In this document: in pieces, positions 8,396-25,954 of the stretch
Layout of the letters: the number at the start of each line of letters is the position of its first letter
Numbering within the stretch: position 1 is the first letter of the stretch
From: a virus
Length of the DNA stretch: 32,883 nt
Virus record (IMG/VR): IMGVR_UViG_3300049218_000083
Location: 133,861 to 166,743 of that record
Strand: one strand, 5' to 3'
The notes under the pieces: generated by a model
What the model was told of the DNA's origin: nothing
The model's input: the letters and a program-made list of their open reading frames with translations, nothing else
Database searches by the model: none
Program-made: the position numbers and the translations under genes

Positions 8396-8664
8396 GTTGC
8401 AGATACCTCGGTTGTTGCAGCGACTACATCAGTGGCTGGCTCGATAGCCAATGCCTTGTCCAGCTTCTGGGTCTTGAAACGCTTTGCCGTTGCATGTGCG
8501 TCGATGAAAAGTTTACGCAAAGAACGCTCATAGCCTTCTGGACCAGCACCCTTGTGAAGCTGACGCAATTCCTTGTTGTGTGTTCCTACTGGAGAAACAC
8601 TCAGATCAGCCAGTCGCTTTAGTTCCCGTGGAAGACGACGGTTGAACGTCGATCGGTTTGCCAT
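8392..8664 (-). CDS. Small basic hypothetical protein (90 aa)
   Basis: GAGG SD upstream; tight packing with neighbours. Confidence 0.75.
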   Translation of the reverse strand: MANRSTFNRRLPRELKRLADLSVSPVGTHNKELRQLHKGAGPEGYERSLRKLFIDAHATAKRFKTQKLDKALAIEPATDVVAATTEVSAT

Positions 8665-9382
8665 TATCTATTTCCTCTTTCAGTAATTCGTCACACTTTC
8701 TCAAAAACCGTTCATGCTGTCCGGCAAGACGAATCTGGAAGTTATGCCAGAAAGACTCCTCGCCAGTCAGCGGATCAGCAAACGTCGTACCAAGACCATA
8801 CCGTGGCATACCGTCCGCAAGAGCCCAGCCTTGCGGAGCCTCGAGTGGAGCAGCTTCAAATTCAGCTGGCATATAGAACTTCACGGGAATACCGTGCTTT
8901 TCACATAGCCAAGTGTACTCTTCAGCCACATCAGATCTCGAAGTTTCTAGAGCCGATGGTCTACCAATCGTCAAGAAGGTTGAATCACTTATCGCCATCG
9001 CGCTAGGAGCCACGAAGACATGCTGACCATTCTGTATATGGTTGGTACGTTGGATGTTTCCAACCAACGACCCATTATACGCTTGTTCGATGTAACTATC
9101 AATGGCTCTATCGTTCAGTGGCACGGCATCGATATCCAGGAACATGATAACATCGAAGTCATACTGTTTTGGAACCTTACCCAAGAATTCTTTTCTGACG
9201 ACTGAACCGTTGAGGTGCCAGGTGCAATCCATCGAGAAACCATGCGGCATCTGTGTCAGGATCTGGAAAAACGGCACATTGCTCTTGTTGAACTTGTCGA
9301 CGACTTTACGTTGTGCCGTGATCGCTTCCTTTGGAATGTTGCTCATGTAGAATGAGAATATTCCTGCTCTTATTTTATCCAT
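8606..9382 (-). CDS. Putative GT-A fold nucleotide-diphospho-sugar transferase
   Basis: Hydrophobic strand + DxD (VIMFLDIDAVPL), SDVAEE acidic motif, late His (FWHNF); overlaps the methyltransferase gene. Confidence 0.65.
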   Translation of the reverse strand: MDKIRAGIFSFYMSNIPKEAITAQRKVVDKFNKSNVPFFQILTQMPHGFSMDCTWHLNGSVVRKEFLGKVPKQYDFDVIMFLDIDAVPLNDRAIDSYIEQAYNGSLVGNIQRTNHIQNGQHVFVAPSAMAISDSTFLTIGRPSALETSRSDVAEEYTWLCEKHGIPVKFYMPAEFEAAPLEAPQGWALADGMPRYGLGTTFADPLTGEESFWHNFQIRLAGQHERFLRKCDELLKEEIDNGKPIDVQPSSSTGTKATG

Positions 9383-10002
9383 ACGAATTTCTCTCTTCTG
9401 TCGTAGACTTTACCAAACAGTTCGCCGACTGCTTGTTTGATTGGTGGATGATGCCAGTCGTCGCCGATCAACACGCCTCCCTTTTTGAGGATGCTTGCCC
9501 AGTTTGATAGGTCATTCTTCACAGAACGATAATCATGGCCGGCATCGATATACACTGCGTCCGGATACAATCCCAACTTCGTGAAGGCGACGAAACCGTT
9601 CTGTGAGTCGATCGGGAATGGTGTGATGTAAGGATCGAGACCCTTGTGGACGTTGTTGGATAGGAACTGCTGATAGAGTGTTGGTCTGCCGTTGACGAGG
9701 TTGAGACGGTTGCCGGGATAATGTTGATCACCGACCCAATGCTCTTCACTCCCCAACCATGTATCTATACAGACAACCTCAAAGTCTTGCGCGTAGTCTA
9801 ACACGACGCTGGTCATCGCTCGCGCGGAGCCGCCCATCCAGGATCCAACTTCGACGATCAGCTTTGGATTGAAATGGGGTGACAGGAACTCTTTGAAACA
9901 AGGATGGTTACTGACAAATCCGTGGCCGTTGAATGGCATGAGTTCAAGATCCTTGTATGGATCATGATCACCAAACAACTTCTTACGAACTATTTGCGCC
10001 AC
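9370..10002 (-). CDS. Class I SAM-dependent methyltransferase (Methyltransf_24-like, probable O-methyltransferase)
   Basis: IVEVGSWMGGS, VVCIDTW, VYIDAGHDY, LKKGGVLIGDDW. Confidence 0.85.
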   Translation of the reverse strand: MAQIVRKKLFGDHDPYKDLELMPFNGHGFVSNHPCFKEFLSPHFNPKLIVEVGSWMGGSARAMTSVVLDYAQDFEVVCIDTWLGSEEHWVGDQHYPGNRLNLVNGRPTLYQQFLSNNVHKGLDPYITPFPIDSQNGFVAFTKLGLYPDAVYIDAGHDYRSVKNDLSNWASILKKGGVLIGDDWHHPPIKQAVGELFGKVYDRREKFVWIK

Positions 10003-10727
10003 GGAAATCCTTCTGGATATCGCTTTGCCATCTCCTCGTTTCCACGAATGAAGAACGAAGAACTGACCGAGATACCTGTACTGTCAGTCGTATAGTTTAC
10101 CGTGTATTTGCCAGTCCCAATACCGGGAGCTGTTGCGGCCAGTGCTTTCACTAATGCTCGATCGACTTCCATCACGTTTGGCTCTCGAGCCTTACGATAC
10201 CAAATCGGAGTGACGAACACCGCAAGGTTCCTGTGAATGAAATAGCAGTTGACATCGACAAGTCTGTCATCCTTGTGTAGGATGGTAGGATAGTCTGGGC
10301 CGAGGCTTTCACAATCATCGTTACACTCGACGCCATTAGCATCGATAACCTTGCGTAGACTCCATCCCCAACCATACTGACCGCTGGTTACAGCCGCGAT
10401 GCAACTCTTGATGTGATTAGCGTCGATGTAATTGTCATCGTCAAGGTACATGACATATTCACCTTCTGCCAGGAAGGTTGCTGCCGCATACATTCGATGA
10501 CCATTCCATCGATCAGCACCAACGATACGTGGCATCTCAATGACTTCGTGTTTGTGGAAACCTTTGATCGATGCGTTGTATCCAATCTGCTTGACTTTGG
10601 AATGTGCAGGTGGCCCATCAGCCATGATGATATGCTGAATGTCAGCGTGCGTTTGTTGCGCAACTGACGCGATGCAGCGCAGTAGTGAATCACGACCAGT
10701 TGTAGCCGTGACGACAGTGACAAGCAT
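9990..10727 (-). CDS. GT2-family glycosyltransferase
   Basis: VTVVTATTGR, SVAQQT, HIIMADG, YVMYLDDDN (DxD), EVDR catalytic region. Confidence 0.88.
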   Translation of the reverse strand: MLVTVVTATTGRDSLLRCIASVAQQTHADIQHIIMADGPPAHSKVKQIGYNASIKGFHKHEVIEMPRIVGADRWNGHRMYAAATFLAEGEYVMYLDDDNYIDANHIKSCIAAVTSGQYGWGWSLRKVIDANGVECNDDCESLGPDYPTILHKDDRLVDVNCYFIHRNLAVFVTPIWYRKAREPNVMEVDRALVKALAATAPGIGTGKYTVNYTTDSTGISVSSSFFIRGNEEMAKRYPEGFPWRK

Positions 10728-10834
10728 TACGACTTACCGCGAATCGAACGCTGGTGCGCTGCCCATCTCTTGAGACGCTTCTTAGATCCACGCTTCGCGC
10801 GACCCCTTCCTCGTCCTTTCAATCCTACACCCAT
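10727..10834 (-). CDS. 35-aa highly basic peptide
   Basis: Manual translation MGVGLKGRGRGRAKRGSKKRLKRWAAHQRSIRGKS; GGAG SD; its TAA overlaps the GT2 ATG (TAATG). Confidence 0.7.
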   Translation of the reverse strand: MGVGLKGRGRGRAKRGSKKRLKRWAAHQRSIRGKS

Positions 10835-10837
10835 GAT

Positions 10838-11071
10838 CTACTCCACCTTTGAATACACATCATCCCAGCGCATGTACGATAGCTCTGGGTCCTTGCAAAA
10901 CATCTCACCTTCGGTCACCAGGCTCGGTCCCCATCTAGCAGAAAAAGCATGGTAAGGAACATCAAGTTTATACTTGAAACCTTTCTCAGTCAACTCGGTG
11001 ACAGTGAACGCTGATTCGATATTACGTCGAACCATGAACCTGTCACCGACTTTGACATCATCGAAGATCAT
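10838..11071 (-). CDS. Hypothetical protein (77 aa, MIFDDVKVGDRF...)
   Basis: The internal ATG at 11071 gives a short overlap with the upstream gene and is preferred over the track start at 11137. Confidence 0.65.
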   Translation of the reverse strand: MIFDDVKVGDRFMVRRNIESAFTVTELTEKGFKYKLDVPYHAFSARWGPSLVTEGEMFCKDPELSYMRWDDVYSKVE

Positions 11072-11903
11072 TAGCTTTGACCACTGCCTCTCGATCAGCC
11101 TGAGTGAAGTTGACAGACGCAGCGCCGACAACACCACGAGATGCTGAGATACTTGAGCTGAGAGTGCTGTACGTCCTCAACATTGTATCCGGTGCCGCAT
11201 CATAAGTCATAGACGACTGTGCAGCGATTCCATAGCTTGCGCCAACGGTGATAGCATCCTGGTTAGCAGCCAAGAATACGAATGCCCAGTTGTAAATGTT
11301 TTTCTGATGGGTGATCATTTCGTTGATTTGTGCACGGTTGTATGTACGACTGTGCAACTCCTGACCGTCAGTCAGAATCACGAAGAAAACCTTCTCTGGA
11401 CGCTCGCTCTCAGGAAGAGCAGCAAGCTTCGCACCAGTTTCGTTGATAGCAACGCCGATAGCGTCCATCAACGGAGTACCTGTTTCGCACAGGTAGTTCT
11501 TATCGTTCAAGTCAGGGATGACGTTCACATCAGCAAAGTCATATGTCTTGGCAACGTTGTGATAACTTGGTGTCACCGTAGTGTTCCAAAGCAAGCCACC
11601 AACTGCATTCGCAGAACCGACGCCGACTGGCGGATAGTTGACTGGAACGACGCCTGGGTTACCAGGAGTTAATGGAAGTGCAGAACCGATAGCAACACCA
11701 CCAACTGCAACTGGCTTGATTGCTGGTTGTGTGTAACCAACAGATTCTTTCGCGAACTGGTAAAGTGACCATGTCAAATTACCTGGCTGAGCCTTTTGAT
11801 CTTTCAGGAACGTGTTGTAACCAGCGATGGTTTGTTCTTTCAAATGTGCCATAGAACCTGAATTGTCCAGGACGAATGTAATGTGGGAATATCCGCTCTT
11901 CAT
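11058..11903 (-). CDS. von Willebrand factor A domain protein
   Basis: MIDAS DNSGS, GTPLMDAIG, ILTDGQE, WAFVFLAANQDA; Pro/Gly/Val-rich insertion. Confidence 0.88.
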   Translation of the reverse strand: MKSGYSHITFVLDNSGSMAHLKEQTIAGYNTFLKDQKAQPGNLTWSLYQFAKESVGYTQPAIKPVAVGGVAIGSALPLTPGNPGVVPVNYPPVGVGSANAVGGLLWNTTVTPSYHNVAKTYDFADVNVIPDLNDKNYLCETGTPLMDAIGVAINETGAKLAALPESERPEKVFFVILTDGQELHSRTYNRAQINEMITHQKNIYNWAFVFLAANQDAITVGASYGIAAQSSMTYDAAPDTMLRTYSTLSSSISASRGVVGAASVNFTQADREAVVKANDLR

Positions 11904-12737
11904 TTATGCTACCTCGAAAGTTAAATTAGGATCGAAGAGTGGGTTCTCATCCGAGACCTTTGGATTGCGTGTGTAACCACGCGGATTGCACATGACCTTA
12001 CACTCACCAATGGCATAGCGGAAGTTGTCATGCGTGTGACCATGCACCCAGTTCTTGATATTTGGATGGTCAAGGATGAGTCCGCTCAGGTCACTGCTGT
12101 AAGCGTAGTTCATCGGGTCATTCCCGTATTTAGGATGAACTGAATTGAAACTCGGTGTGTGATGTGTCATGACCAAGAATTCCATGTCCGGATGCTGGTC
12201 AAGCTCGGTTAAAAGACAATTCTTGGTAATGTTGTGTTCATCCATGGAGTCCGTTGGATGATATGAAGGTGCATTGTTGTACGGCTGACTTGTACCATAC
12301 TTGATCAGGTAGAAGTCGTTCATGCCCTGGCGCGCTGCGTAAATCGCAAGCGGATCACCCTTGTTCATATCTGTCCACATCGTTGCGCCAAACAACATGG
12401 TCTTGTCTGTAAGCTTGACAGCTTCGTTGTCCAACACCGTGATGTTTGTGATTTGGCGGTCAGTCAGAAAGTCACGCAATGTCTGGATCGTATCTCCAAA
12501 CTTTCCATGGTAGTGTTCGTGATTGCCAGCAATGTAAAAGGCTTGCTTATACTTGGTTGACACCATCCTGAAGAACGCATCGCAGCGCTCTTTCAGCTTC
12601 TTAGATCCACCGTCTGTCCGATGACGTTGTAAGAACGCAGCCACAGTGATGTCACCAGATAGCAGCAACGTTTCACCACCGTCTAACTCAATCGGGCAAA
12701 ACTCCAGATGGAGATCGCTCACCAGATGTACCTTCAT
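11904..12737 (-). CDS. Calcineurin-like metallophosphoesterase
   Basis: SDLH, GD, GNHEHY, THH, HGHTH, CNPRGY motifs. Confidence 0.92.
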   Translation of the reverse strand: MKVHLVSDLHLEFCPIELDGGETLLLSGDITVAAFLQRHRTDGGSKKLKERCDAFFRMVSTKYKQAFYIAGNHEHYHGKFGDTIQTLRDFLTDRQITNITVLDNEAVKLTDKTMLFGATMWTDMNKGDPLAIYAARQGMNDFYLIKYGTSQPYNNAPSYHPTDSMDEHNITKNCLLTELDQHPDMEFLVMTHHTPSFNSVHPKYGNDPMNYAYSSDLSGLILDHPNIKNWVHGHTHDNFRYAIGECKVMCNPRGYTRNPKVSDENPLFDPNLTFEVA

Positions 12738-12942
12738 TTAGCTTCTTCCTTCGTTCTTCTATTTTGTCAATGACATCCAGCTTCTCATCCTTAGAGTATC
12801 CACTCCATTCTGAGATTTCTCTGAGCGTCCTCAAGCATCCACCACAGTAACCAGTTCGGCTATTGACGCCGCACTGATTCGTACATGGTTGAGTTGGTTC
12901 TCGCTGAACCTCTAACCACCATGCGTCGTTCATACTTCCCAC
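12688..12942 (-). CDS. DUF1289-like Cys-rich small protein
   Basis: PCxxxC...GYCxGCxRTxxEIxxW pattern. Confidence 0.75.
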   Translation of the reverse strand: MGSMNDAWWLEVQREPTQPCTNQCGVNSRTGYCGGCLRTLREISEWSGYSKDEKLDVIDKIEERRKKLNEGTSGERSPSGVLPD

Positions 12943-13412
12943 AATTGGACATTACATTCACGCGCATACTGCCGAACTTTTTCGAACGCTGGACCCCAAC
13001 GAGTCAGCTGTTCTTGGGTTGCCTTCGGTGCTACAAACCGCACGATTCCATTCTGGACCATCTGTACAAAGCATCGATCGCAAGGCATGAATGGCGTGGT
13101 ATATAGCGTGTATCCTTTCACTGGCTCACGAGAGTGTGCCAACGCATTTATCTCACCGTGAATGATACGACTATACTTCTCTTCACGGTTCGCATACAAT
13201 TCAGCCTTGTCAGGCATTCCACGTGGGAAACCGTTGAACCCAACTGAGCACACGCTGTTGTCTGGACGAACAATGACTGCGCCAACCTTGGTTGACGGAT
13301 CCTTTGATCGAGATGAAATGTACTGACACATTTCAAGATAGAAATCATCCCAAGATATTTGAGATGGTGTTCTCCACTCAGGGAGTAGAATCATCGATGT
13401 TAGTTCGTCCAC
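12930..13412 (-). CDS. cd: dCMP deaminase
   Basis: SKDPSTKVGAVIV, GFNGFPRG, HGE, PCxxC zinc motif. Confidence 0.92.
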   Translation of the reverse strand: MDELTSMILLPEWRTPSQISWDDFYLEMCQYISSRSKDPSTKVGAVIVRPDNSVCSVGFNGFPRGMPDKAELYANREEKYSRIIHGEINALAHSREPVKGYTLYTTPFMPCDRCFVQMVQNGIVRFVAPKATQEQLTRWGPAFEKVRQYARECNVQLWEV

Positions 13413-13417
13413 TAGAT

Positions 13418-13642
13418 CTACCTCAAATATTCTCGAATGTCTCTTAGCTGTTTAACTTCACGATGCCATTGACCTGGCAACCCTGGAATGCTGTGAATCA
13501 GATGATAGAAGCTGGCGCTGTTGTAGTCGTCACAACACAACTCCTCAACTATCGCCATCAAATCAATCACACCCTCGGTGCAATATGCTCGATATTCAAG
13601 AGGCAAGTTGCCGCTCGGTGTTTGTTTGATCAGGTAATACAT
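13418..13642 (-). CDS. Hypothetical protein (74 aa)
   Basis: Fills the gap on the coding strand. Confidence 0.6.
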   Translation of the reverse strand: MYYLIKQTPSGNLPLEYRAYCTEGVIDLMAIVEELCCDDYNSASFYHLIHSIPGLPGQWHREVKQLRDIREYLR

Positions 13643-14153
13643 CGCGCGACCTTCTTTGCGAGGCTAGATAATCTTCGTGATAAATGATTTCGCCAGTTTC
13701 CAAGTTTGGACAAAATCCCCAGAATGCATTGTTAATCGTCTTGCCACGCGTGAACGACGTCCACGTCTTACCTGGCTTGGGTATTTCTACCCAGTGTAAA
13801 TTTGCCGGAACTCGAACATCATGACTTTCGTCAGTCGATCTCCAGGTTGTGCAGTCCTGATAGTGCCAACTTCCTGGACCCATCCATTTCGTTCCCCATG
13901 GAGTATGCTGCCAGTATCCACCTTTCAGCACAATCGTGAAATACCAATCCCACGGATGAGTGTGAAACACTGGATCATCTGATCGTAGGAACTGATGAAG
14001 GAATGTGTTGAAAGGGATGTCCTTGCGTTCACGCTTCGTGCTGTCAGCCCAAGCAACATAGTATCTCGTGAGATACGGTTCAACGTTCTCTCGATCATAG
14101 ATCGTGTACTTACGATCATGTTTCTCAAGTTGATTCAGCAACCACTGGAACAT
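13596..14153 (-). CDS. Cupin-fold protein
   Basis: LHQFLRSD...HTHPW...TIVLKGGY...HWVE, matching the two cupin metal-binding motifs. Confidence 0.75.
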   Translation of the reverse strand: MFQWLLNQLEKHDRKYTIYDRENVEPYLTRYYVAWADSTKRERKDIPFNTFLHQFLRSDDPVFHTHPWDWYFTIVLKGGYWQHTPWGTKWMGPGSWHYQDCTTWRSTDESHDVRVPANLHWVEIPKPGKTWTSFTRGKTINNAFWGFCPNLETGEIIYHEDYLASQRRSRDVLPDQTNTERQLAS

Positions 14154-14194
14154 AGTCCACCATTACAAGAATGATCACCAATTATAAGTCTTAA

Positions 14195-15571
14195 TCAACG
14201 AAACCGTTTCAACGATTCATCGTAGAGTTCGTCATTCTTATAGTATTCTTTGAACTTGTCATCGATCTCTTTGTGTTCAGCTAACGCAACCTGGAACTTG
14301 CTGAACCATTTGAACAACTCATCGTCTGACAGCTTTTTCAGCTCAGCATGAATGTTCATGTAGTGTTTCTTAACAGCAAGAGCGATATTAACAGGCTGGT
14401 GTATCGACTCCACAAGCTGCTCTTTCATATCATGTGGAGCGTATTGTGCAATTGGCAAATCACCCGCCATGGTAATCTTCTGAAGTCTGCCATGGTCAGC
14501 GCAGTTGAAGATCTCAATCAGTTTGTTGGTTTTACCAAAGGTCGTGGTCGTGCTAAGGTAAGACAAAGTCGCTGGTGGGTTTGGTTTCGTAAACGTGTAA
14601 TGGTACTGGTCGCTGAAAATCAGAATCAAAACGACGAATGAACCAGTGTGCTGCATGACTTCCCATGTTCTGCCAGTACTGGAGACGTCAATGTAGATAG
14701 CATTCTCAGGTGCTTGGCTTTTCAGATACGCAGCTGCCTCTTTTGGCTGACTCAAGGCTACTTCTCGTGAGAACGGAAGGTAGTATGAATCCACATCATA
14801 AAACGTGTTGTAGATCTTATACAGAAGCTGACAGTCGCGCCCAAGGAACACAGGTCGACGCACATTCTTCAGTTTACGATAGATCATCTCAGAGGCGAAA
14901 AACAACCATGGCAGGTTCAGCTGGTTGGCGAGATCAAACACGTCGGTATGAGAATCCATCCTATCGCGGCGAAATCGAACCTCACGAACGAGCTCGGCAA
15001 GCAATGGAGCCTTGACAATGTTCATGATATCATGCTCAATGCTAGTCAACTGAGGACGACGGTAATGAACTCCGTTTATACCATGCTGCTGGGCTTGTGT
15101 GACGTCGCTTTGTAGGTTATCGCCCAGATGTAACTCAGGTTTGAATACACCGCTCACGCTCCTCCAAAACGAGCCTGTATGCTTACCATTGTTAGACTGA
15201 TAAACGGTGACTTGTTTATCCATGCCTACAGAGCGAACGAGTTTGAGAATATCTGCAGCTGACAAATACATGTCAGAAATCAACGCGTCACCATGACGGA
15301 CCTCGTTGATATTAGTTTGGATCGGGATGGCATTCTCTTGTTCGTAAGCGACTTCGAGACTACAAAGCGCATCAGCCATCACTGGATCGATGACCTGAAG
15401 GTTGACGAGGTGTTGATAGATGTTACGAAGTGACACACCGCGTGCGTTTGCATTCTTACGGTGGAAGAAGAAGTTTGGAATCTCAAGGTCGGCATCCATC
15501 TGCCGCCAGATTGCTTCACCATCGATACACCGTCTTGTGATGAGTGTATCGAATACATCAAATGATCTCAT
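14195..15571 (-). CDS. HAD phosphatase + PRTase-like two-domain protein; putative PRPP-dependent ribofuranosyltransferase
   Basis: N-half HAD motifs SFDVFDTL, ISDMYL, K(HTG), HLGDN..SD. C-half FLGRD..LL, YL..SRE, YIDVSSTGRT (PRPP-loop-like). Confidence 0.65.
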   Translation of the reverse strand: MRSFDVFDTLITRRCIDGEAIWRQMDADLEIPNFFFHRKNANARGVSLRNIYQHLVNLQVIDPVMADALCSLEVAYEQENAIPIQTNINEVRHGDALISDMYLSAADILKLVRSVGMDKQVTVYQSNNGKHTGSFWRSVSGVFKPELHLGDNLQSDVTQAQQHGINGVHYRRPQLTSIEHDIMNIVKAPLLAELVREVRFRRDRMDSHTDVFDLANQLNLPWLFFASEMIYRKLKNVRRPVFLGRDCQLLYKIYNTFYDVDSYYLPFSREVALSQPKEAAAYLKSQAPENAIYIDVSSTGRTWEVMQHTGSFVVLILIFSDQYHYTFTKPNPPATLSYLSTTTTFGKTNKLIEIFNCADHGRLQKITMAGDLPIAQYAPHDMKEQLVESIHQPVNIALAVKKHYMNIHAELKKLSDDELFKWFSKFQVALAEHKEIDDKFKEYYKNDELYDESLKRFR

Positions 15572-15574
15572 GAT

Positions 15575-15841
15575 TTATGGTAGCCTGTAATGTTCCTTTA
15601 CAGCGTTTGGTGCATACTCTTCTACATTGCCTTCGAAGAATTTGTCGAGAACAGCCTTGGCTTGTTCAACAGTTATGCCACATGATTCCGCGTAGCATTT
15701 GAGATGGAAGTCATCACGCTGATCCCTTTCAAGGCGACGAAGATCACCCTTGATCATTGAAAGTGGGTGAATGTGCGGATCATAGTCACCATCAAGTTGG
15801 TTCCGTTTGACAACGCGATCGTATGTCATTGGGTATCCCAT
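15575..15841 (-). CDS. Hypothetical protein (88 aa)
   Basis: TAATG coupling to regA. Confidence 0.7.
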   Translation of the reverse strand: MGYPMTYDRVVKRNQLDGDYDPHIHPLSMIKGDLRRLERDQRDDFHLKCYAESCGITVEQAKAVLDKFFEGNVEEYAPNAVKEHYRLP

Positions 15842-16245
15842 TAGATTTTCTTCTTGGTTCCGATGCTGTACTTGGCGACAAGTTGCCAGTCAGCCTTGTC
15901 CTTGAATGAGATGATCTTTATTTGTGAAAGAGGCGCAACCGCTGTATCAGGGATCTCAGGAAGAATCTTAATCAGTTCCCACTGCTGGAGCAGTTTTGCG
16001 ATGGTGTTACGACGTTGGTAGTCGTTCTCTGTAATTGTCGATGGTTTGCCGTCGAGAGCAAATAGTTCCTTAAAATGAACAATTGCGTATCGACCTTGCT
16101 TATGAAGAATGTGGGCAGATTGGTAGAGAACATTTTCGTTCTTGGCAGCGACACCGATTCGGGTCAACGATTCTCTTACGATGTTAAAGCTGTCTGGCTT
16201 CGTCAGCGTGACTTCCAGTCCTACACCTTTGAATATGTCAGTCAT
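15841..16245 (-). CDS. regA: RegA translational repressor
   Basis: VRESLTRIGVA, LYQSAHILHKQGRYAIVHFKELF, RRNTIA, KYSIG. Confidence 0.97.
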   Translation of the reverse strand: MTDIFKGVGLEVTLTKPDSFNIVRESLTRIGVAAKNENVLYQSAHILHKQGRYAIVHFKELFALDGKPSTITENDYQRRNTIAKLLQQWELIKILPEIPDTAVAPLSQIKIISFKDKADWQLVAKYSIGTKKKI

Positions 16246-16287
16246 TTCAATTTCTCAACGTTTGGTCATGATCCGATCTTCTCCTGA

Positions 16288-16294
16288 TATTTAG
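16288..16294 (-). promoter_or_regulatory. Putative late promoter CTAAATA upstream of regA
   Basis: Same heptamer as 2564-2570, at a gene boundary. Confidence 0.45.
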
Positions 16295-16507
16295 AGAAGC
16301 TCGTTTCGGTCATGAAACATCAAGTTGATATCACTGGAAGCAACAAGCACATAATCTAGATCACGCATGTAATCGATCATCTGTGCTGTACGACCAGGCT
16401 TCATAGTTCTGCGCATAGCTGCGGTGCAACCATGCTGGAATCGTTGGATTTGAGAGTGCGTTCTCATCCACTTCACAATAGACAAATGGATTTGGTATGC
16501 GCTTCAT
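16291..16507 (-). other. Small ORF(s) of uncertain frame between gp62 and regA
   Basis: A 48-aa ORF at 16361-16507 is ATGA-coupled to gp62; an overlapping frame stays open to 16291. Confidence 0.4.
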
Positions 16508-16887
16508 TGACCGATCGTCAAAACTGTGCGGATGTGTTCCAACTCTGACTCTTGGAGTACACTCAGAGCCATTCTTGCTTTCTGATCACTGTATCCGAAA
16601 TACTCTTTGACCAACTCGAGATCTTCAGGCTTGACAGGCTTGATCCAGGATGCATAACCACGCTTCTTCTTACGCAACGAGTGGAAGAAGAAATTGTACT
16701 GCGCAACCTCAGGAAGCACATGATAAATGTTCATCTCAGCCGCATAGAAAATGCTGTCATCGTGATACGACAACATCTTGTTGACTACAAATGGCTTGTA
16801 CTCCTTCTCATATTCCTCGAAGCAATGCTTCTTGGTCAGCTGAAGAGAAGGCAGGACGACTTTGAATAGATCACTCATCTTCAGCAT
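16504..16887 (-). CDS. 62: Clamp loader small subunit (T4 gp62-like)
   Basis: YKPFVVNKMLS, AAEMN, QYNFF, KEYFGYS..KA; synteny 45-44-62-regA. Confidence 0.93.
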   Translation of the reverse strand: MLKMSDLFKVVLPSLQLTKKHCFEEYEKEYKPFVVNKMLSYHDDSIFYAAEMNIYHVLPEVAQYNFFFHSLRKKKRGYASWIKPVKPEDLELVKEYFGYSDQKARMALSVLQESELEHIRTVLTIGQ

Positions 16888-17320
16888 CCAATAAATGTGG
16901 AAACATTATTGTATAGCGTTTGATGTTGTTATTCCAGTTCGTCAAACATTTTCTGATGTGTGGAATGTCATCACCCATGAAACCCAACGCTCGGTTGCAA
17001 CTATCGTGCAACCAACTCCTAAACTTGTTGGTCTTGTGATTATGGTCCATCGACAAAACATCAACATCCGTTGGTGGCTTGCCACAGTAATCACAAACTT
17101 CAGGCATTGGTGGCGCGGTTCGACGTATTTCTTTTCGAACTTTTCCTGCTATGCTACAACATGACTTGCAAATACTGTTTCGACCGTCGTGACTGTTCTT
17201 ATGCTTGTGGAATCCATTGTACGCAATGTAATTTCCACATTCCCTGCAGTGTTTCCCTGGTGGGAGATCTCCTTCTAGCTCTAGCGGTAGACTAGACCCT
17301 TCATACAAATCGTTTCCCAT
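16871..17320 (-). mobile_element. Free-standing Endonuclease VII-family (HNH) homing endonuclease
   Basis: N-terminal CxxC...CxxC finger; CDYCG, MDHNH.T.KFR.WL...CNRALG; AT-rich; inserted between 44 and 62. Confidence 0.85.
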
Positions 17321-18261
17321 TACTTGATCTCACATTCAACCATCACTTCCGTCAGAAACGCAGCTAGATTGATTTCCTGATCCGCAACCTGCGAAGCATA
17401 TTGCAGATACTTACCCAACAACACAACCAAAATCGGATGAGACTCTGGCTTGAACATATCGTTCATCTTCAGATAGATGTCACGCATGATGACACCCGAA
17501 TCAGCATCCGAGTTGTTTCCAACCCACTTCCGCAACGCTTTGAAGTCTTTGGCTTTCAAGAAGCCAACAATTTCCTCAACCTTGGCATCAGTTGCCTGGG
17601 CAAGAATACCTTCATCGATCGCACCTGACGCAGCATACTTCTGCAGTTCACCCAATGTCCGGCGAAAGTCTGGAAAGAATCGCGTGATAACCGCAGCTAC
17701 CACTTCCTTCTTGTATGGGACATTCTGTTCATCCAGAATACCAAGCGCACGCTTGAAGAAGTCAGCAGCCATCTTCTGTTTGTCAGATTTCTGCAGCTTG
17801 AAGTCAATCGGTGGACATCGGCTATGAATCGCCGGAATGATACGGTTCTTGTGATTACAGGTGAAAATGAAAGAACAGTTTTCACCAAACTCTTCGATCG
17901 GACCACGAAATGCGTCCTGGGCATCAGCAGTCAATCCATCAGCCTCATCCATGATGATGGCTTTGCGGCCACCACCCAACGATACACTAGAGGCGAAGTT
18001 TGGAACCTTGACCTTGATAGTGTCAACACCACGATCCCTACCTGATCCATTCAATAGGATGTAGTCAACACCAATTTCTTCGCACATAGCACGCGCGATA
18101 GTTGTCTTGCCAGTGCCGGGAGTGCCGGTCAGCATCATATTCGGAATTTCACCCTTGTCGACGTATGTCTGGAAGATCTTCTTGGTCACTTCCGGAACGA
18201 TACAATCTACCACTTTCTTCGGGCGATAAATCTCGACCCACAGAATATCATTACCAATCAT
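17320..18261 (-). CDS. 44: Clamp loader large subunit (T4 gp44-like)
   Basis: LWVEIYRP, GTPGTGKTT, DEAD, SRC motif, FPDFR. Confidence 0.97.
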   Translation of the reverse strand: MIGNDILWVEIYRPKKVVDCIVPEVTKKIFQTYVDKGEIPNMMLTGTPGTGKTTIARAMCEEIGVDYILLNGSGRDRGVDTIKVKVPNFASSVSLGGGRKAIIMDEADGLTADAQDAFRGPIEEFGENCSFIFTCNHKNRIIPAIHSRCPPIDFKLQKSDKQKMAADFFKRALGILDEQNVPYKKEVVAAVITRFFPDFRRTLGELQKYAASGAIDEGILAQATDAKVEEIVGFLKAKDFKALRKWVGNNSDADSGVIMRDIYLKMNDMFKPESHPILVVLLGKYLQYASQVADQEINLAAFLTEVMVECEIK

Positions 18262-18273
18262 AAATTCCTCACG

Positions 18274-19005
18274 TCACTGGGTATAGAGTTTCCACGCTTT
18301 CAGGTAATTGTGTTCAGCAATTTCCCATGACCAATTATACTTGATACCACCAAACGATTCGAGATATGATGCTACAACTTCCTTGATTCCATCCTGGCTT
18401 GGCCAGTCTGCACCTTTGGTGACCATCAGACTATCAGCCTCGACAAACAGCGCGATGATGTCAGCACGCTTGCAGCCTTCGGTAATCTTTGATGGTAATT
18501 TGAACTGTTCACGCAAACGCGCATCCAGTTTGCTTTCAATCTCTTTGTACTGTGGCAGTAAGACCTTCCATGGTGATGGAATATCTGCCAGGTACGCTTC
18601 CGTTCCATCATGCAGCAATCCTTCCACTGGATTTCCTAGATCAAGGTCCTGCATGATTTGAGAAACAAGAACACAGTGCTGCGCGACGGAGTAGAACTCC
18701 ACGCAGTGTCCGTTAAATCTGCAGAGCTTGCTGAGTGCAGAAGCTATTACATTAATGTCGAATGGACTTCGATCTATGTAAAAGTTCTTACCATTGACCA
18801 GTTCAATGAACAGGCCATCGGTCATCTTTTCTTTGTATACTTCGTCAGCTTGCTTTGTAGGAACGAACAAGGGATCAACCTCACTGCTTAAATAGCAACA
18901 GGGAACGCAGTGATAAACACCTGGCATCCTGTGACACGAACAAGTACAACCACCGAAAGCTTTCGGCAAGTCCTTGTTGAAATAATTATTCGGAAGAAGG
19001 CTCAT
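18274..19005 (-). CDS. HD-domain 5'-deoxynucleotidase (YfbR/YfdR-like) with a Cys-rich N-terminal extension
   Basis: CRFNGH, YSVAQH, LLHD..EAY..DI.SP.K, KRAD. Confidence 0.85.
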   Translation of the reverse strand: MSLLPNNYFNKDLPKAFGGCTCSCHRMPGVYHCVPCCYLSSEVDPLFVPTKQADEVYKEKMTDGLFIELVNGKNFYIDRSPFDINVIASALSKLCRFNGHCVEFYSVAQHCVLVSQIMQDLDLGNPVEGLLHDGTEAYLADIPSPWKVLLPQYKEIESKLDARLREQFKLPSKITEGCKRADIIALFVEADSLMVTKGADWPSQDGIKEVVASYLESFGGIKYNWSWEIAEHNYLKAWKLYTQ

Positions 19006-19363
19006 TGTCTATCACCTGTCGAACTGCTTCTTCCAGAGTATTGTCTGGCTCCGGACGTTTGATCACAACATAACCAGCACGCTCAAGAGCAGCGATCTTG
19101 TTGTGAAGACGCATCTCTTCTTCTAGTTTGTCCTGGCGACGCTTCGCCCAAAGATCAACACGAATGTGATCCTGAAAATCTCCAGGATTCTTCAACTCTG
19201 GTATGGTCTCAGACAAATACACGTTGATGTTATTGATCCTGAAGTGAACTTGATCACTCAAGGTTTGCAGTTGTTCCTTCAACTGAGCCTGTGTTACACA
19301 TGGCTCAGCTTTCGGTGGAAAAATATCTTCCGCTGCTTTGCAATCGCAATTACTGCAACCCAT
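18986..19363 (-). CDS. Hypothetical protein (125 aa)
   Basis: AGGAG SD; packed between 45 and the HD gene. Confidence 0.75.
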   Translation of the reverse strand: MGCSNCDCKAAEDIFPPKAEPCVTQAQLKEQLQTLSDQVHFRINNINVYLSETIPELKNPGDFQDHIRVDLWAKRRQDKLEEEMRLHNKIAALERAGYVVIKRPEPDNTLEEAVRQVIDNEPSSE

Positions 19364-19364
19364 G

Positions 19365-20087
19365 TTAGGCTCCTACGACGCCTTCCTCAAGCAACTGAGG
19401 CGCATCGAAAGAAGACTGCTTGGACTCGATCGAGATCCAATACTGAAGCTTCTTGGTCTTGTGTGTGAAAAGAGAAACGCCAACCTTGGAAATCTGCACC
19501 GTGTATTCGCCTGGGATGACCTTCAGGTTGTCGATCTTGAAGACTGCCTTGAAGTTGGCAGAAGCAACGGTGCCCAGCTCTACGCTTGCACTGTCAACTA
19601 CTTCACCCTTCACGTCGACCGCAGAGATGGTGATGTTCTCACCAGCTTCACCGGCGACAACGATGTTTGGACACTTCAGGATGCTCGATACGTTGAACAC
19701 CCAATCGAAGATTTCTTGAGTTAAAGTCAGATCGACGTTGAACTTCTCGATCTTCAGTTCCTTGGATGGCGGACCCATGATAAACTTGGTGTCAGTGAAA
19801 CGCTGACGAATCTTACCCTTGCCATTCAGGCCAAGGAACACGAATGACTCGTTTTCGATTTCCACTTCCAACGCGCTCTTGTTCAATGACAACAGCGCCA
19901 GCAACTTGTTCAGGTCATAGATACCAAACTCATTCTCGAACGTCTCATCTACAACCGCACGAGCAAGGATTGTCTTGTTCTGGGAGATGGTACGGATCAC
20001 ATTGCCTGGCTTGATAATCAAACCGCTGTTGATCGATGCAAAATTCTTCAGGACTTCAACAAAGTTCTCACTCAATTTCATGTGCAA
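19365..20087 (-). CDS. 45: Sliding clamp (T4 gp45-like)
   Basis: LKNFASINSG, FGIYDLN, NLKVIPGEY, YWISIE. Confidence 0.96.
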   Translation of the reverse strand: MHMKLSENFVEVLKNFASINSGLIIKPGNVIRTISQNKTILARAVVDETFENEFGIYDLNKLLALLSLNKSALEVEIENESFVFLGLNGKGKIRQRFTDTKFIMGPPSKELKIEKFNVDLTLTQEIFDWVFNVSSILKCPNIVVAGEAGENITISAVDVKGEVVDSASVELGTVASANFKAVFKIDNLKVIPGEYTVQISKVGVSLFTHKTKKLQYWISIESKQSSFDAPQLLEEGVVGA

Positions 20088-20116
20088 TTCTCCAAAATGT
20101 AGTTCTATTATAAATG

Positions 20117-20737
20117 TTAACGCTTGGCGTATTCGGTAATTTTCACCTGTAATTCTTGCACTGTACCATCATTTCTGATTACAGTTTGCAGCAACGGATG
20201 ACCGATCCATGCCCACTCCGAATAGTGAACCTCTGGATATTGCGGCATGGTTTGAACTGTTCCATCCCAATTGTTTGCTTCGTTGATGGCAACAGCAGTG
20301 CTGTACCAGGCTGGCCTCTCACCACGCATGATCTGTGCAAGCTTGCCGCCAACGTGCATGACCATTTCGATTTCATTTGGAAAGCGAACATCAGTTATGA
20401 CGTAATCCTTGGTCGTGTCCAAACTGCGCAGCAATGCACCAACCCATAGATCCTTTCCGAACACATTGCGACCAGCTTCAGTGCCCATCCATTGGAGCAC
20501 TAGACGTGGTGTGATAGTCTTCTTCAACACAGCTGACCAGTACTCGTCAGGCTGTTCACGAAACGCACGTGATTCCGGTGTGTCACCTTCAAGTAAATGA
20601 CGTGGCCATCCGAAAATAACCGCAACAGCATCTTTCAGAATCTTAGCAAACGATACTGGAGTGAATCCGTCAGCTGCTAGGAGCTCTCCAGCAGTTCCCT
20701 TGCCCGATCCAATGATGCCTAGAAATCCAACGATCAT
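20117..20737 (-). CDS. Deoxynucleoside monophosphate kinase (T4 gp1-like)
   Basis: GIIGSGKG, SFA..LKD, PRLVLQWMGTE, ITDVRFPNE, HYSE. Confidence 0.92.
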   Translation of the reverse strand: MIVGFLGIIGSGKGTAGELLAADGFTPVSFAKILKDAVAVIFGWPRHLLEGDTPESRAFREQPDEYWSAVLKKTITPRLVLQWMGTEAGRNVFGKDLWVGALLRSLDTTKDYVITDVRFPNEIEMVMHVGGKLAQIMRGERPAWYSTAVAINEANNWDGTVQTMPQYPEVHYSEWAWIGHPLLQTVIRNDGTVQELQVKITEYAKR

Positions 20738-20883
20738 AATTCATCCTTCTTAAAGGCTATTGGCACCGCATAGTTCTTAGCTTTGTGCCAGCTTTCCTGT
20801 ATCTCTTCTTGCGTTGCAGCAGGAGGTGATGGATATTCGATTGGACCTTTTGCTGGCGTCTTTGGTTTGGTCGACTCGGTCAT
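20734..20883 (-). CDS. Small hypothetical protein (49 aa, MTESTKPK...)
   Basis: ATGA overlaps at both ends favour the start at 20883 over the track start at 20949. Confidence 0.6.
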   Translation of the reverse strand: MTESTKPKTPAKGPIEYPSPPAATQEEIQESWHKAKNYAVPIAFKKDEL

Positions 20884-21110
20884 ACTGGGTCCGCCGTTAC
20901 ACCAAGAACACCCTTGGCATCTGGCTCCGGAAGGCTCAACACCTTCCAAGATTTACCAAGTGGTTCTTCTCCATCTGGTGCCTCTTCAATGATCGCGATG
21001 ACTTCACCAACCTGAACACCTGCTAATCCAAGTTGTTCACGCCTTTCTCCGGTTACAGAAACGACTGAGAACTTACGCAGTTCGAATGAAGTATCGATAC
21101 CCTTGATCAT
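20880..21110 (-). CDS. Hypothetical protein (76 aa)
   Basis: TAATG coupling to the glycosyltransferase gene. Confidence 0.7.
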   Translation of the reverse strand: MIKGIDTSFELRKFSVVSVTGERREQLGLAGVQVGEVIAIIEEAPDGEEPLGKSWKVLSLPEPDAKGVLGVTADPV

Positions 21111-22096
21111 TACAGATTTCCTACCAATTGCGCAACCGCAGCCATGTTACCTTGGAACGCATACGTACCGACGTGGAACGTGCGCATCCATGGACACAAC
21201 CAAATTTCTCCACCCATGTTGCGCCACTGTTGACAGAAGAAATAGTCTTCTGACAAATAACGCTCAGATCCACCGACTTCAACAATTTCACCCTTCTTGC
21301 GTTCACCCAGGTCCTGTTGAATTTCCATCTGACGCTTCTTGTCGATGATGCAATCAAAGTATGCGTGAATGTAACGAGATCCATCAAAGTTAGCTTGACC
21401 GACATGGTCAGGCTTGTAGCTGTACTGAGGATACTGAAGAGCCCAACGCAAGAAGACCTCGCGCTTGATCATCATGTAACCTGTACCGATCTCCATAACC
21501 TTCAGTGGTTCACCGACGTTGAACTGACCTGTTCCAGCAACTGGATTGAAGACATAGTCTCCAATGGTTTGTTCAACTTCCTGAGAGGTCAACTCTTTTG
21601 GAACATCATACAGTGGCTTGGCGATAACTGCCCCATCTGCAGTTGGACCAGCAGCCTGTGCAGCCATGTTTTCAGCAGCAATCTCGATGTTCTTCTCGTT
21701 GACCGTCTTGATCAGGCTATGACGTTTGTTGATAGCTGTAATCGCACTGTTCCACTTGATAGACTTCTTTGGATATGGTGCACCAATGATGTCCTTGTCG
21801 AGTGCCATCAAAGCCAACACATCTTTCGGATCGAAGTGAATATCGGCATCGAGGAACAACAAGTGTGTGTAACCTGAACGCAGGAACTCATCGACCAGGT
21901 AGTTGCGAGCTCGCGTAATCAAGGATTCGTTGAAGATGAATGAGAAGCGATTCTCCATTCCGTACTGACCGCACATACCCTGAAGGTCAAGGCATGCTTT
22001 CATGTACATACCAAGGCACATACCACCATACATTGGAGTGGCGATGAAAAGCTTGTTCTTACGTAGCTGCTCAACACTGATTGATAAATTTACCAT
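21110..22096 (-). CDS. GT-A fold glycosyltransferase
   Basis: FIATPMYGG, ESLITRARN, LLFLDADI (DxD), GTGYMMI.R, YLSEDYFFC, HVG. Confidence 0.85.
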   Translation of the reverse strand: MVNLSISVEQLRKNKLFIATPMYGGMCLGMYMKACLDLQGMCGQYGMENRFSFIFNESLITRARNYLVDEFLRSGYTHLLFLDADIHFDPKDVLALMALDKDIIGAPYPKKSIKWNSAITAINKRHSLIKTVNEKNIEIAAENMAAQAAGPTADGAVIAKPLYDVPKELTSQEVEQTIGDYVFNPVAGTGQFNVGEPLKVMEIGTGYMMIKREVFLRWALQYPQYSYKPDHVGQANFDGSRYIHAYFDCIIDKKRQMEIQQDLGERKKGEIVEVGGSERYLSEDYFFCQQWRNMGGEIWLCPWMRTFHVGTYAFQGNMAAVAQLVGNL

Positions 22097-22165
22097 TTGG
22101 GATCCTGTTCTTGTTATTAGAGGCGGATGATTACCAATAATACCGCAGCAAACTGTAAAAGGAAA

Positions 22166-22732
22166 TCAACCTAAGATCAATTCGTCAATGAGATACTGAA
22201 TGATCTTGTGCTGATCTTCTGGTGTTTCGTTCACATACGTTTCAGACAGCGGCATCAGAACCATGTTTGACATGAGATTTTCGATCTTCGTTTCACGACC
22301 ACGCTTGAACGTATCTGTTTGCGTATCGTTCCGAACTTCATGACGAGCATGAATTGTTGCTGGACTTGCTGTAATGAAGATGATCTTCAGGTCGAGCGTA
22401 GGATCATCCGCAAGCAATTCCAAAAAAGACTGATTGAAAAGACGGTCACCCTCGAACAGCACATTGCCTGTTGTCTCTTTGACAAACTTTACAGCTTGCG
22501 GCTGAACAGCCATTGAGAGGCGATCAGTTCCACCGAACGGTTCACCCTCTGGGTACTTACCGATGATGTGCAAGTTTGATCCAGACATATAGAGTGTAGG
22601 GACTAGCTTCACATCCTCACGCTCAAACCATGTCGCACCTGGTCGACGATCTTCGGTTGACTTGATGAACTTCTTCATTATGGTCGACTTGCCAGTCGCT
22701 GGTTCGCCGCCGATTGCTATAATTTTTCTCAT
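22166..22732 (-). CDS. P-loop nucleotide kinase of the type linked to phage base-modification loci
   Basis: GGEPATGKST, IGKY..GE.FGGTDRLSMAVQP, FEGDRL; ATGA-coupled to the dioxygenase. Confidence 0.8.
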   Translation of the reverse strand: MRKIIAIGGEPATGKSTIMKKFIKSTEDRRPGATWFEREDVKLVPTLYMSGSNLHIIGKYPEGEPFGGTDRLSMAVQPQAVKFVKETTGNVLFEGDRLFNQSFLELLADDPTLDLKIIFITASPATIHARHEVRNDTQTDTFKRGRETKIENLMSNMVLMPLSETYVNETPEDQHKIIQYLIDELILG

Positions 22733-24030
22733 CCGAACAAATGCTCCAATGAACTCTCTTCTTCAAGAGGGTGATATTTGTCAACTAGAACCTGACCAAA
22801 ATTCTGGCCAAGGAACTGATACCATTCATCCGACTCCCACATACCTGGGCTGATTCCATTCCAACCGTTTCTCCAAAGCTTGTGGTCCTGGTTCTTGCGG
22901 CGCGACTCTACAAACTGAAAGCGAGCATCTTCGTATCGTTTCTCACCCAGTTCGAGCATCTTCTCTCGCAAGTAACACACCAGGCTGATACGCTCAAGCT
23001 CGACACCCTCTTTCGCAACGATTGGGGTGTTCCCATGGATGTACTCATGGTTGGAAACCAACAACAAATCACCCGGACGAATGTTCACTGCTGCTCTGAT
23101 CTCTGGGAGAATCAGATAGCCACCTTGATAGTCAAGGTTCTTGGCAACGACAGTTAGGTTCGAGAACCCAGCGGCAAAGTCGCCTGCGTCGCGGTGCGCT
23201 GCTGTACGGAAGTTCTTGTTGACAGTGATAGTCGTCAGTGGTGTTCCAGGAATCCGGAACGCTGGATCGATCTTATCCGCTGCCTCCATCTGTGCAGCAT
23301 ATCGCTTTGGTAAGAACTCCTTGAACGCTGAACTCAGCCGCTCCATGAATGGATAGCAAAGTTTCCAGGTGTCGAAATTCTGTGCCGTGTACGCTGTAGC
23401 TCGACCATACGGAATGCGCGGATACCGATCAAACCAGCCGGCAATACCAGAGTCGACAGGATTAGCGTAGAAGGTATCGCTGATCAAATCAGACAACACC
23501 CACTTGGCTTCTTTGCGGACCTTCTCGAGAGGGAGGCCATAAAGACCGTTCAGCCACTGTTCAAAATCGAACTTGTGTTTCTCTTTCTCGGACGTCAACC
23601 AAACCATGCCGCGAGTGCCCTGCTTCTTGTTAGCCACGAAGCGGATCTGCTCGATGTCAGTTTTCAAGTCTGTGAAATGACTGGAGCCAAGGTCGACAAG
23701 ATATTCGAGAACGTCGATTTGCTCATCAGTCACCCAGTCGCGGTTCAACAGCTTTGGGCCCAGGGAGCCAGCTGCCAGGCCACGGTTTTGAGTGGCGTGC
23801 ACAGCTCCGCGTAGACCGTCATAGGCACCGATCTGTTCAGCCTTGGTAAAGTAATTCTTGCGAAACTTCAGGATGACGTTACTTTCATCGTTCACCTGTT
23901 CAGCACCCATGGGCAGCTTGAGATATACGTCGCAGTCTTCATCCAGCAACGTATCGTAATGAGCCTCGTCTAGAAATTGACCGAGGAGGTGGTCACAATC
24001 ATGTTTCTCGAGAACTAGAACTTTTGTCAT
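22729..24030 (-). CDS. TET/JBP-family 2-oxoglutarate/Fe(II) dioxygenase
   Basis: TTITVNKN..TAAHRD (HxD), GDLLL...IHGNT (distal His), RISLVCY (2OG-binding Arg); C-terminal SLEHLFG. Confidence 0.85.
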   Translation of the reverse strand: MTKVLVLEKHDCDHLLGQFLDEAHYDTLLDEDCDVYLKLPMGAEQVNDESNVILKFRKNYFTKAEQIGAYDGLRGAVHATQNRGLAAGSLGPKLLNRDWVTDEQIDVLEYLVDLGSSHFTDLKTDIEQIRFVANKKQGTRGMVWLTSEKEKHKFDFEQWLNGLYGLPLEKVRKEAKWVLSDLISDTFYANPVDSGIAGWFDRYPRIPYGRATAYTAQNFDTWKLCYPFMERLSSAFKEFLPKRYAAQMEAADKIDPAFRIPGTPLTTITVNKNFRTAAHRDAGDFAAGFSNLTVVAKNLDYQGGYLILPEIRAAVNIRPGDLLLVSNHEYIHGNTPIVAKEGVELERISLVCYLREKMLELGEKRYEDARFQFVESRRKNQDHKLWRNGWNGISPGMWESDEWYQFLGQNFGQVLVDKYHPLEEESSLEHLFG

Positions 24031-25885: not shown

Positions 25886-25954
25886 AAAGTAAGTTCACCA
25901 GGCCAGTAGTTTGAGGGTTAGTGTTACGATAAGAAAGAGGCGCAGTTATCGTTT

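Follow-up and report, generated by a model that had tools for sequence, protein, structure and literature searches.

Several routes by which phages modify the pyrimidines of their DNA have been published, including the post-replicative oxidation of thymine by phage 5-methylpyrimidine dioxygenases (5mYOX), thymidine hypermodification through a kinase and an amino acid:DNA transferase (AADT), and mono- to tri-saccharide marks on 5-hydroxymethylcytosine (5hmC) (PMC13229309, PMC8989533, PMC8256090, bioRxiv 10.1101/2023.12.21.572611). The locus analysed here, referred to as the window, is a stretch of 32,883 nucleotides that forms the final 32.9 kb of the 166.7-kb IMG/VR phage record IMGVR_UViG_3300049218_000083, whose completeness is 98% according to CheckV. 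Its source is a T4-like freshwater phage, and the replication genes, which like every other window gene lie on the minus strand, are interspersed with a TET/JBP-type dioxygenase (hereafter TET), a P-loop kinase, a GT-A glycosyltransferase of 328 aa (GT328) and a block of sugar-related genes between regA and pol. A sequence-only reading of the window had proposed that these enzymes constitute a single pathway, which would build an oligosaccharide on a hydroxymethyl-pyrimidine in the phage DNA. Comparison with related phages leads us, with somewhat better than even confidence, to a different view, in which the T4-like replication module carries three separately inherited accessory units and not one pathway. 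Family assignments, gene order, co-occurrence and gene absences were computed, whereas substrates, reaction order, clamp tethering and acceptors are inferred.

The locus shares features with each of the nearest described systems and departs from all of them. As in the pathways of phages M6, ViI, SP10, PhiW-14 and PaMx11 (PMC8989533), a P-loop kinase of the base-modification family is present, and the cassettes of relatives additionally carry AADT, pyridoxal phosphate (PLP) enzyme, glutamine amidotransferase (GATase) and acetyltransferase genes. Unlike in those pathways, 5-hydroxymethyluracil (5hmU) would arise here by post-replicative TET oxidation of thymine and not through a dUMP hydroxymethylase, the genome lacks an AADT, and the kinase has no BLAST link to those of M6, ViI or SP10. 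The phage thymine dioxygenases of 5mYOX clades C1 and C2, ParB-dependent and -independent (PMC13229309), correspond to a TET/JBP enzyme that has no adjoining C5-methyltransferase (C5-MTase) and that, in relatives, is accompanied by kinases, AADTs, GATases or glycosyltransferases (GTs). The window differs from them in that its genome has no ParB, in that the cassette lies within a T4-like replisome module, and in that its TET has a polymerase-like, putatively clamp-binding tail, a feature not mentioned in PMC13229309. The clusters responsible for 5hmC glycans, which combine a methyltransferase, a 5mYOX and GTs (bioRxiv 10.1101/2023.12.21.572611), and the glucosyl-hmC of T4 and arabinosyl-hmC of RB69 are likewise comparable, since several GTs and sugar-tailoring enzymes occur here in a 5mYOX-bearing phage. 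In contrast to those systems, the predicted GTs of the window are not co-inherited with the 5mYOX and are accompanied by no cytosine methyltransferase. In the base J pathway of kinetoplastids (JBP1/2 and JGT), thymine in DNA is also hydroxylated by a TET/JBP enzyme, to which the TET and GT-B pairs of sister phages may be analogous; in the window, by contrast, TET is coupled to a kinase step, and no J-binding or SNF2 domain was detected in the TET protein.

Thymine oxidation and the kinase step

The dioxygenase (433 aa; 22729-24030), of the Fe(II)/2-oxoglutarate (2OG) type, matches the Tet_JBP domain PF12851 with 82.9 bits (E 2e-23) against a curated cut-off of 34.9, and the residues of its iron triad and its 2OG arginine, H279-R-D281, H328/H332 and R347, are invariant across 10 relatives. 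A search of the PDB with the TET profile returned only marginal matches, to TET2 and clavaminate synthase. Among cultured phages, Stenotrophomonas phage DLP6 and Caulobacter phage Cr30 are the most closely related, with 43-50% identity in the dioxygenase. Their homologues (L001 18001-19347 and L002 18001-19329, respectively) are annotated as 'SNF2 DNA repair protein', a label that looks like an annotation carry-over from JBP2.

The genome encodes neither a C5-cytosine methyltransferase nor a ThyA-family enzyme nor ParB. It encodes ThyX as well as a dCMP deaminase (12930-13412; PF00383, E 6e-16), so ordinary thymidylate should be made. Because of this gene content and the retention of the HxD...H/R residues, thymine in DNA is the most likely substrate of TET, with 5hmU as its product. 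This assignment is in agreement with the published phage T-dioxygenases, which are linked with kinases, AADTs, GATases or GTs, and with the scarcity of C5-methyltransferase genes, found in only 6% of 5mYOX pathways (PMC13229309). A ThyA-type hydroxymethylase was not found in the genome fragments of three relatives (G001, G002 and G003). The claim that the dioxygenase creates a hydroxymethyl-pyrimidine handle is supported as the most likely reading, in the form of 5hmU. It is highly improbable that TET instead oxidises 5-methylcytosine (5mC) made by a host methyltransferase, as in phage systems that pair a C5-methyltransferase with TET, and that the kinase phosphorylates 5hmC. A kinase of the same family does lie in a C5-MTase-TET-x-kinase cluster of phage Melnitz, and some phage 5mYOX enzymes oxidise both T and 5mC (PMC8256090, PMC13229309), but this idea has to contend with the absence of a C5-MTase from the genome, with the rarity of such genes in the published pathways, and with relatives' cassettes whose AADT, GATase and PLP genes are those of a thymidine hypermodification machinery.

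The C-terminal end of TET (...EEESSLEHLFG) resembles that of the phage polymerase (...EESTLESLFGE), and an [ST]LE.LF end is borne by only these two open reading frames (ORFs) of the whole genome. A tail of the form S-T-L-E-D-L/M-F-G/A is kept on TET in nearly all relatives and is also present on their polymerases; none of the kinase, GT328, or the GT2-family enzyme, p258 and ribofuranosyltransferase of the sugar block ends in this way. In T4 and RB69, gp43 docks onto gp45 via a C-terminal peptide of this type, and the gp45-type sliding clamp of the window phage (19365-20087; PF09116) is a likely docking site of the TET tail. By analogy, the likeness to the clamp-binding tail of the polymerase supports an action of TET on DNA at the replication fork. 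A prediction of the complex between clamp and TET tail scored 0.34, compared to 0.00 for the best control, which adds weak support. Of 80 solved complexes, 58 attain the mark of this test, as do 2 of 110 mismatches; at scores of 0.60 or below, it is attained by only 7 of those 80 complexes together with both passing mismatches. The runs concurred in at least 66% of contacts, and the partner pLDDT was at least 37. A comparable clamp-peptide complex has been solved for RB69, and the pass may therefore stem from likeness to it. The occurrence of a dioxygenase with a clamp-type tail in a genome without ParB looks new.

The start codon of the P-loop kinase (188 aa; 22166-22732) overlaps the TET stop codon (ATGA). 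The protein belongs to the base-modification family (5-hmU DNA kinase-like) by a borderline Ploopntkinase3 score of 27.3 bits against a cut-off of 27, and it keeps the Walker A motif GEPATGKS and all other family-invariant motifs. In characterised pathways, the DNA kinase acting on 5-hmU (5-HMUDK) makes 5-phosphomethyl-dU (5-PmdU), and AADT then replaces the phosphate by an amino acid (PMC8989533). No AADT could be detected in the genome, as PF18724 gave no match at E<=1 and a lineage hidden Markov model run with filters off (--max) gave nothing under E 0.2. Since the kinase forms 5-PmdU in the known pathways and the AADT is missing here, the phage, to judge from its genes, probably holds the first two steps of the thymidine hypermodification route without the third. 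The partner of TET in this phage is the kinase, the entry step of amino-acid-type thymidine hypermodification, and not a glycosyltransferase. An AADT accompanies the kinase in 62 of 64 kinase-bearing loci, the exceptions being the window phage and the C5-MTase-type phage Melnitz. In the latter, a Methylophilales phage (L089, MZ577097.1 4010-8090), pol is followed by an HhaI-like C5-methyltransferase, TET, a 427-aa protein and a kinase of the window kinase's family; this cluster of a cultured marine phage, annotated as hypothetical, represents a counterpart of the cytosine type.

The surroundings of the cassette were surveyed in 80 TET-anchored IMG/VR loci, in which the dioxygenase is 52-61% identical to that of the window. 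The conserved order in these loci is gp55-gp47-gp46-pdf-776aa-AAA5-TET-[variable genes]-GT328-dNMPK-clamp-gp44-gp62-regA...dCMP deaminase. In the window, the slot, bordered by the AAA+ ATPase gene on one side and GT328 on the other, contains only TET and the overlapping kinase. In 53 of the 80 loci, it holds a GATase, to which a 298-aa protein, a GNAT and a 443-aa protein (alternatively a PLP enzyme) may be added, followed by AADT (PF18724). A single GT-B without a kinase is found in approximately 20 others, where it directly follows TET, which makes glycosylation of 5hmU plausible in this lineage. The alternatives in sister phages can be summarised as GATase/GNAT/AADT/kinase, PLP/AADT/kinase, and a single GT-B without kinase. 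Examples among sister phages L003 to L082 are L044:11295-15760, L003:11463-13558 and L005:11290-12624. The stretch from TET to GT328 thus acts as a site at which one chemistry of thymine hypermodification is swapped for another. Such a slot within a T4-like replisome module, swapping cassette types, looks new, as does a kinase-only cassette without AADT.

The same survey bears on whether TET and the kinase are the remains, decaying or functionally reduced, of a complete AADT cassette, giving at most partial 5hmU, no further hypermodification and little biological role, which we consider unlikely. Such a remnant would be in line with the PLP-x-AADT genes that lie between TET and kinase in the nearest TET-bearing relative, with the restriction of the TET+kinase-only layout to the window phage among the surveyed thymine-type loci, and with the loss of the entire cassette in some relatives. 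It is at odds with two intact ORFs that keep all family-invariant residues, with the neat ATGA overlap expected in a functional operon, and with the retention of the clamp-type tail on TET.

GT328 and the sugar block between regA and pol

GT328 (21110-22096), which lies on the other side of the slot, has an invariant DxD motif, D83-A-D85. VIA-align superposes 160 aa of its model on 8SNC, the Chlorella virus hyaluronan synthase, with Z 13.6 and rmsd 2.5, and gives Z 13.4 to LH3/ColGalT1 and STIV A197 and Z 12.0 to Mnn9 at 23% identity. Foldseek, applied to a model of moderate quality (pLDDT 71.5), yielded low TM-scores, and the GT-A fold was settled by VIA-align. On the modelled fold and the DxD motif together, the assignment of GT328 as a GT-A glycosyltransferase is solid. 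In the window phage and its closest relatives, the protein has a ~45-residue insertion (residues ~122-168), predicted to be a long helix, without which most relatives have forms of 266-279 aa. A GT328-anchored survey found at least 565 IMG/VR relatives, and the slot was covered in 57 of the best 80 loci. Among these 57, TET is absent in 44, accompanied by GT-B in 6, accompanied by AADT and kinase in 6, and located elsewhere in 1; TET with the kinase alone was found in none. Furthermore, Sinorhizobium phage phiM12 and related phages, a group in which the TET query found no match, have GT328 in the interval from gp46 to gp45. To judge from this distribution, GT328 is a core gene of the lineage, most likely with an acceptor that does not depend on TET. 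The possibility that GT328 substitutes for the missing AADT was rejected, since it accompanies AADT and empty slots alike.

For the 458-aa protein encoded at 14195-15571, the closest described systems are Bcs3 of Haemophilus influenzae type b (8A0C) and the polysaccharide ribofuranosyltransferase 7SHG of Thermobacillus (T. composti). In Bcs3, CrpP is followed by CriT, and the pair first adds ribofuranose-5-phosphate from phosphoribosyl pyrophosphate (PRPP) and afterwards takes off its phosphate (PMC10299916). The family profile of the phage protein matches the CrpP domain of this capsule enzyme (residues 384-610) with E 1e-16, and its FDxFDTL motif, with D5 and D8 invariant, is that of a CrpP-type HAD phosphatase. 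An AlphaFold2 model of high confidence (pLDDT 92.8) matches Bcs3 8A0M with a Foldseek E of 9e-14 and 7SHG, a ribofuranosyltransferase, with 9e-12. Bcs3 (8A0C/8A0M) and 7SHG are the sole strong matches, with E values from 1e-11 to 1e-14, the next match being at 1e-2; single-sequence PDB searches with the 458-aa protein found no match. The order of the domains, a HAD phosphatase and then a phosphoribosyltransferase-like domain, is the same in all of them, although the phage protein stands alone, without polymerase or SH3b parts, and its sequence identity is ~14%. Based on the model, its identification as a two-domain ribofuranosyltransferase, with a HAD domain preceding a phosphoribosyltransferase-like catalytic domain, is solid, and the earlier proposal of a HAD and phosphoribosyltransferase-like protein handling ribofuranose agrees with these matches. 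The family is mostly viral, with at least 137 relatives. No phage member of a CrpP/CriT-type family was found described in the literature searched, and this mostly viral family looks new. Among the neighbours of more distant homologues are genes for Methyltransf_21, GT17, epimerase, NTP-transferase and DegT proteins, whereas TET was not found within 10 kb of any of them. A Methyltransf_21 (FkbM-type) gene adjoins the phage homologues repeatedly (L088, L097 and the P0011 contig); the gene neighbourhoods suggest that ribofuranose and methylation form a conserved pair.

The block between regA and pol comprises, besides the ribofuranosyltransferase, a calcineurin-like metallophosphoesterase (11904-12737; PF00149), conserved upstream of pol, a 281-aa protein, p281 (11058-11903; phrog_7371), with a faint VWA-like N-terminus, a GT2-family glycosyltransferase (9990-10727; PF00535, 31.5 bits), a class I S-adenosylmethionine methyltransferase of the CmcI / rhamnosyl O-methyltransferase type (9370-10002; Methyltransf_24, E 4e-16), and p258 (8606-9382), a conserved phage protein of 258 aa. 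The last is a possible GT-A because of its DxD-like motif FLDIDAVP, to which could be added chance-level beta4GalT matches (E 0.09 in Pfam and E 0.6 for the profile against the PDB) and a sub-threshold Atlas lead; hhalign found it unrelated to GT328 (probability 0.3). Of the three GT-A enzymes that had been proposed, GT328 and GT2 are solid, while p258 has its conserved motif and matches at the level of chance. Nearly all other enzymes on the original list were confirmed by profile or structure searches, and the cupin-like protein (13596-14153; PHROG 'cysteine dioxygenase') was recognised through phrog_4786 only (E 5e-19).

Three syntenic relatives, L084 (a 50-kb contig), L085 and L087 (a Logan contig), run from the AAA+ gene to GT328 with neither TET nor kinase between, and all keep the ribofuranosyltransferase, the cupin, the deaminase, the DUF1289 protein, the metallophosphoesterase, p281, GT2 and p258 at identities of 40-80%. 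L087, L092 and the P0199 contig have the methyltransferase of the block, which L084, L085 and L091 lack. A fourth relative (L100/L101, a 177.5-kb contig) has the metallophosphoesterase-p281-x-p258 part together with GT328, and its slot holds a 198-aa gene only. The cupin is also found in relatives with a TET-less slot, and another block-bearing relative carries nucleotide-sugar synthesis genes too. Conversely, the sugar block occurs in 0 of the 80 TET-anchored loci, though at least 17 of them span the interval between TET and the deaminase. Among the relatives with the block, G003 is the nearest one to bear TET, and it has the full TET-PLP-x-AADT-kinase cassette. The neighbourhood check set beforehand, for co-occurrence of the GT and methyltransferase genes with the dioxygenase across relatives, came out negative and thereby counts against their union in one pathway. 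On these gene distributions, the sugar genes appear to be inherited independently of TET, and a single DNA hyper-glycosylation pathway is unlikely, being unsupported in view of the block without TET in four relatives, TET without the block, and GT328 without TET.

In its full form, the single pathway would have GT328, GT2, p258 and the ribofuranosyltransferase build an O-methyl-capped oligosaccharide on a TET-made hydroxymethyl-pyrimidine, beyond the known mono- to tri-saccharide marks, and we judge this quite unlikely. The enzymes are genuine, soluble proteins encoded inside 15 kb of the replication module, the combination of TET and sugar block recurs in G003, a GT-B adjoins TET in the ~20 sister phages, the orphan kinase leaves a step unfilled, and up to three sugars are placed on 5hmC by phage GTs (bioRxiv 10.1101/2023.12.21.572611). 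These points are outweighed, in our view, by the conservation of the block at 40-80% protein identity where the slot has no TET, by its absence from every TET-anchored locus, by the independence of GT328 from TET, by ribofuranosyltransferase homologues elsewhere that never adjoin TET, and by the coupling of a kinase, and not a GT, to TET in the window phage.

With regard to the acceptor, the window proteins all lack transmembrane-like segments and a flippase is missing, for which reason a Gtr-type conversion of the host O-antigen was rated unlikely and a cytoplasmic acceptor is to be expected. The sugar enzymes should thus act on DNA, on a phage protein, or, at the inner membrane face, on a molecule that is small or linked to a lipid. 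Because the genes are kept in phages with a TET-less slot, a TET-made base is disfavoured as the normal acceptor. Virion proteins and the host surface had been named as alternative targets from the outset; the latter is unlikely, and our favoured guess is a phage protein.

A replication module with three accessory units

The proposed model could be described as follows. The first unit is the slot cassette, in which TET, probably held at the fork by its clamp-binding tail, would hydroxylate thymine in DNA to 5hmU, and the translationally coupled kinase would phosphorylate 5hmU to 5-PmdU; with the relatives' AADT missing, the final base would be 5hmU or 5-PmdU or the product of an unrecognised transferase. 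The second unit is GT328, a core GT-A enzyme with a putatively TET-independent acceptor. The third is the regA-to-pol block, which, with its putatively PRPP-dependent ribofuranosyltransferase, may build or extend a glycan on a cytoplasmic, TET-independent acceptor.

Several points weigh against this model. The relatives without TET are known from fragments (completeness is 28% for G001 and 13% for G002, and of L087 and L101 a part was searched), and TET could lie elsewhere in their genomes, as TET is indeed found at other positions in Cr30, L077-L082 and L111. The sugar genes sit in the early replication module, where T4 has its DNA glucosyltransferase genes, and the phage protein that we favour as the acceptor of the block is a guess. 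Moreover, the preference for T over 5mC is deduced solely from the missing methyltransferase, and a host Dcm-type enzyme could provide 5mC. The kinase combines a marginal Pfam score with the lack of a BLAST link to the M6, ViI or SP10 kinases. An intact kinase without AADT stays unexplained and leaves room for an unrecognised transferase, possibly a sugar enzyme. A very unlikely variant is that 5-PmdU or 5hmU has been taken over by the sugar enzymes, in the window phage and in parallel in G003, to give a ribofuranose-containing O-methylated glycan on thymine, with the TET-less relatives using another acceptor.

Neighbouring genes and significance

The remainder of the window is a T4-type replication and recombination module, identified by Pfam through gp55, gp47, gp46, a peptide deformylase, the AAA_5 ATPase and its 776-aa partner, the gp45 clamp, gp44/gp62, RegA, a family-B polymerase, UvsX and gp41. 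A comparison of the complete stretch with cultured phages by Megablast gave nothing useful, and an NCBIfam search added nothing decisive to the family calls. Next to GT328 is a dNMP kinase (T4 gp1-like; 20117-20737) of general nucleotide metabolism, whose PF21448 score of 26.9 bits is slightly below the cut-off of 27.1 and whose position is conserved in relatives. An HD-domain dNMP phosphatase (T5 Dmp-like; 18274-19005; phrog_318, E 6e-52) and a small Cys-rich DUF1289 protein (12688-12942; PF06945, E 3e-16) are also encoded. The AAA_5 ATPase and its 776-aa partner (24233-28285), which form the upstream border of the slot and are retained in relatives with and without TET, constitute a GC-rich island (0.54-0.55 versus ~0.46), where antisense frames of 505 and 595 codons stay open. 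An Endonuclease_7-domain gene (16871-17320) between the clamp-loader genes gp44 and gp62, there in few relatives, may be a mobile endonuclease insertion. The phage peptide deformylase (28342-29076; PF01327, E 4e-36) adjoins gp46 throughout the lineage.

A large group of freshwater T4-like phages thus possesses a slot near the clamp genes that alternates between an amino-acid-type thymine cassette, a sugar type and nothing. In the window phage, the cassette that halts at the kinase step offers a natural test case for the fate of 5-PmdU without AADT. If the glycan were located on thymine after all, it would be the first pentofuranosyl, PRPP-derived DNA hypermodification. More generally, gene proximity in a phage replication module should not be read as a pathway, and both GT328, with its at least 565 IMG/VR relatives, and the CrpP/CriT-type family, with at least 137, represent widespread phage enzymes.

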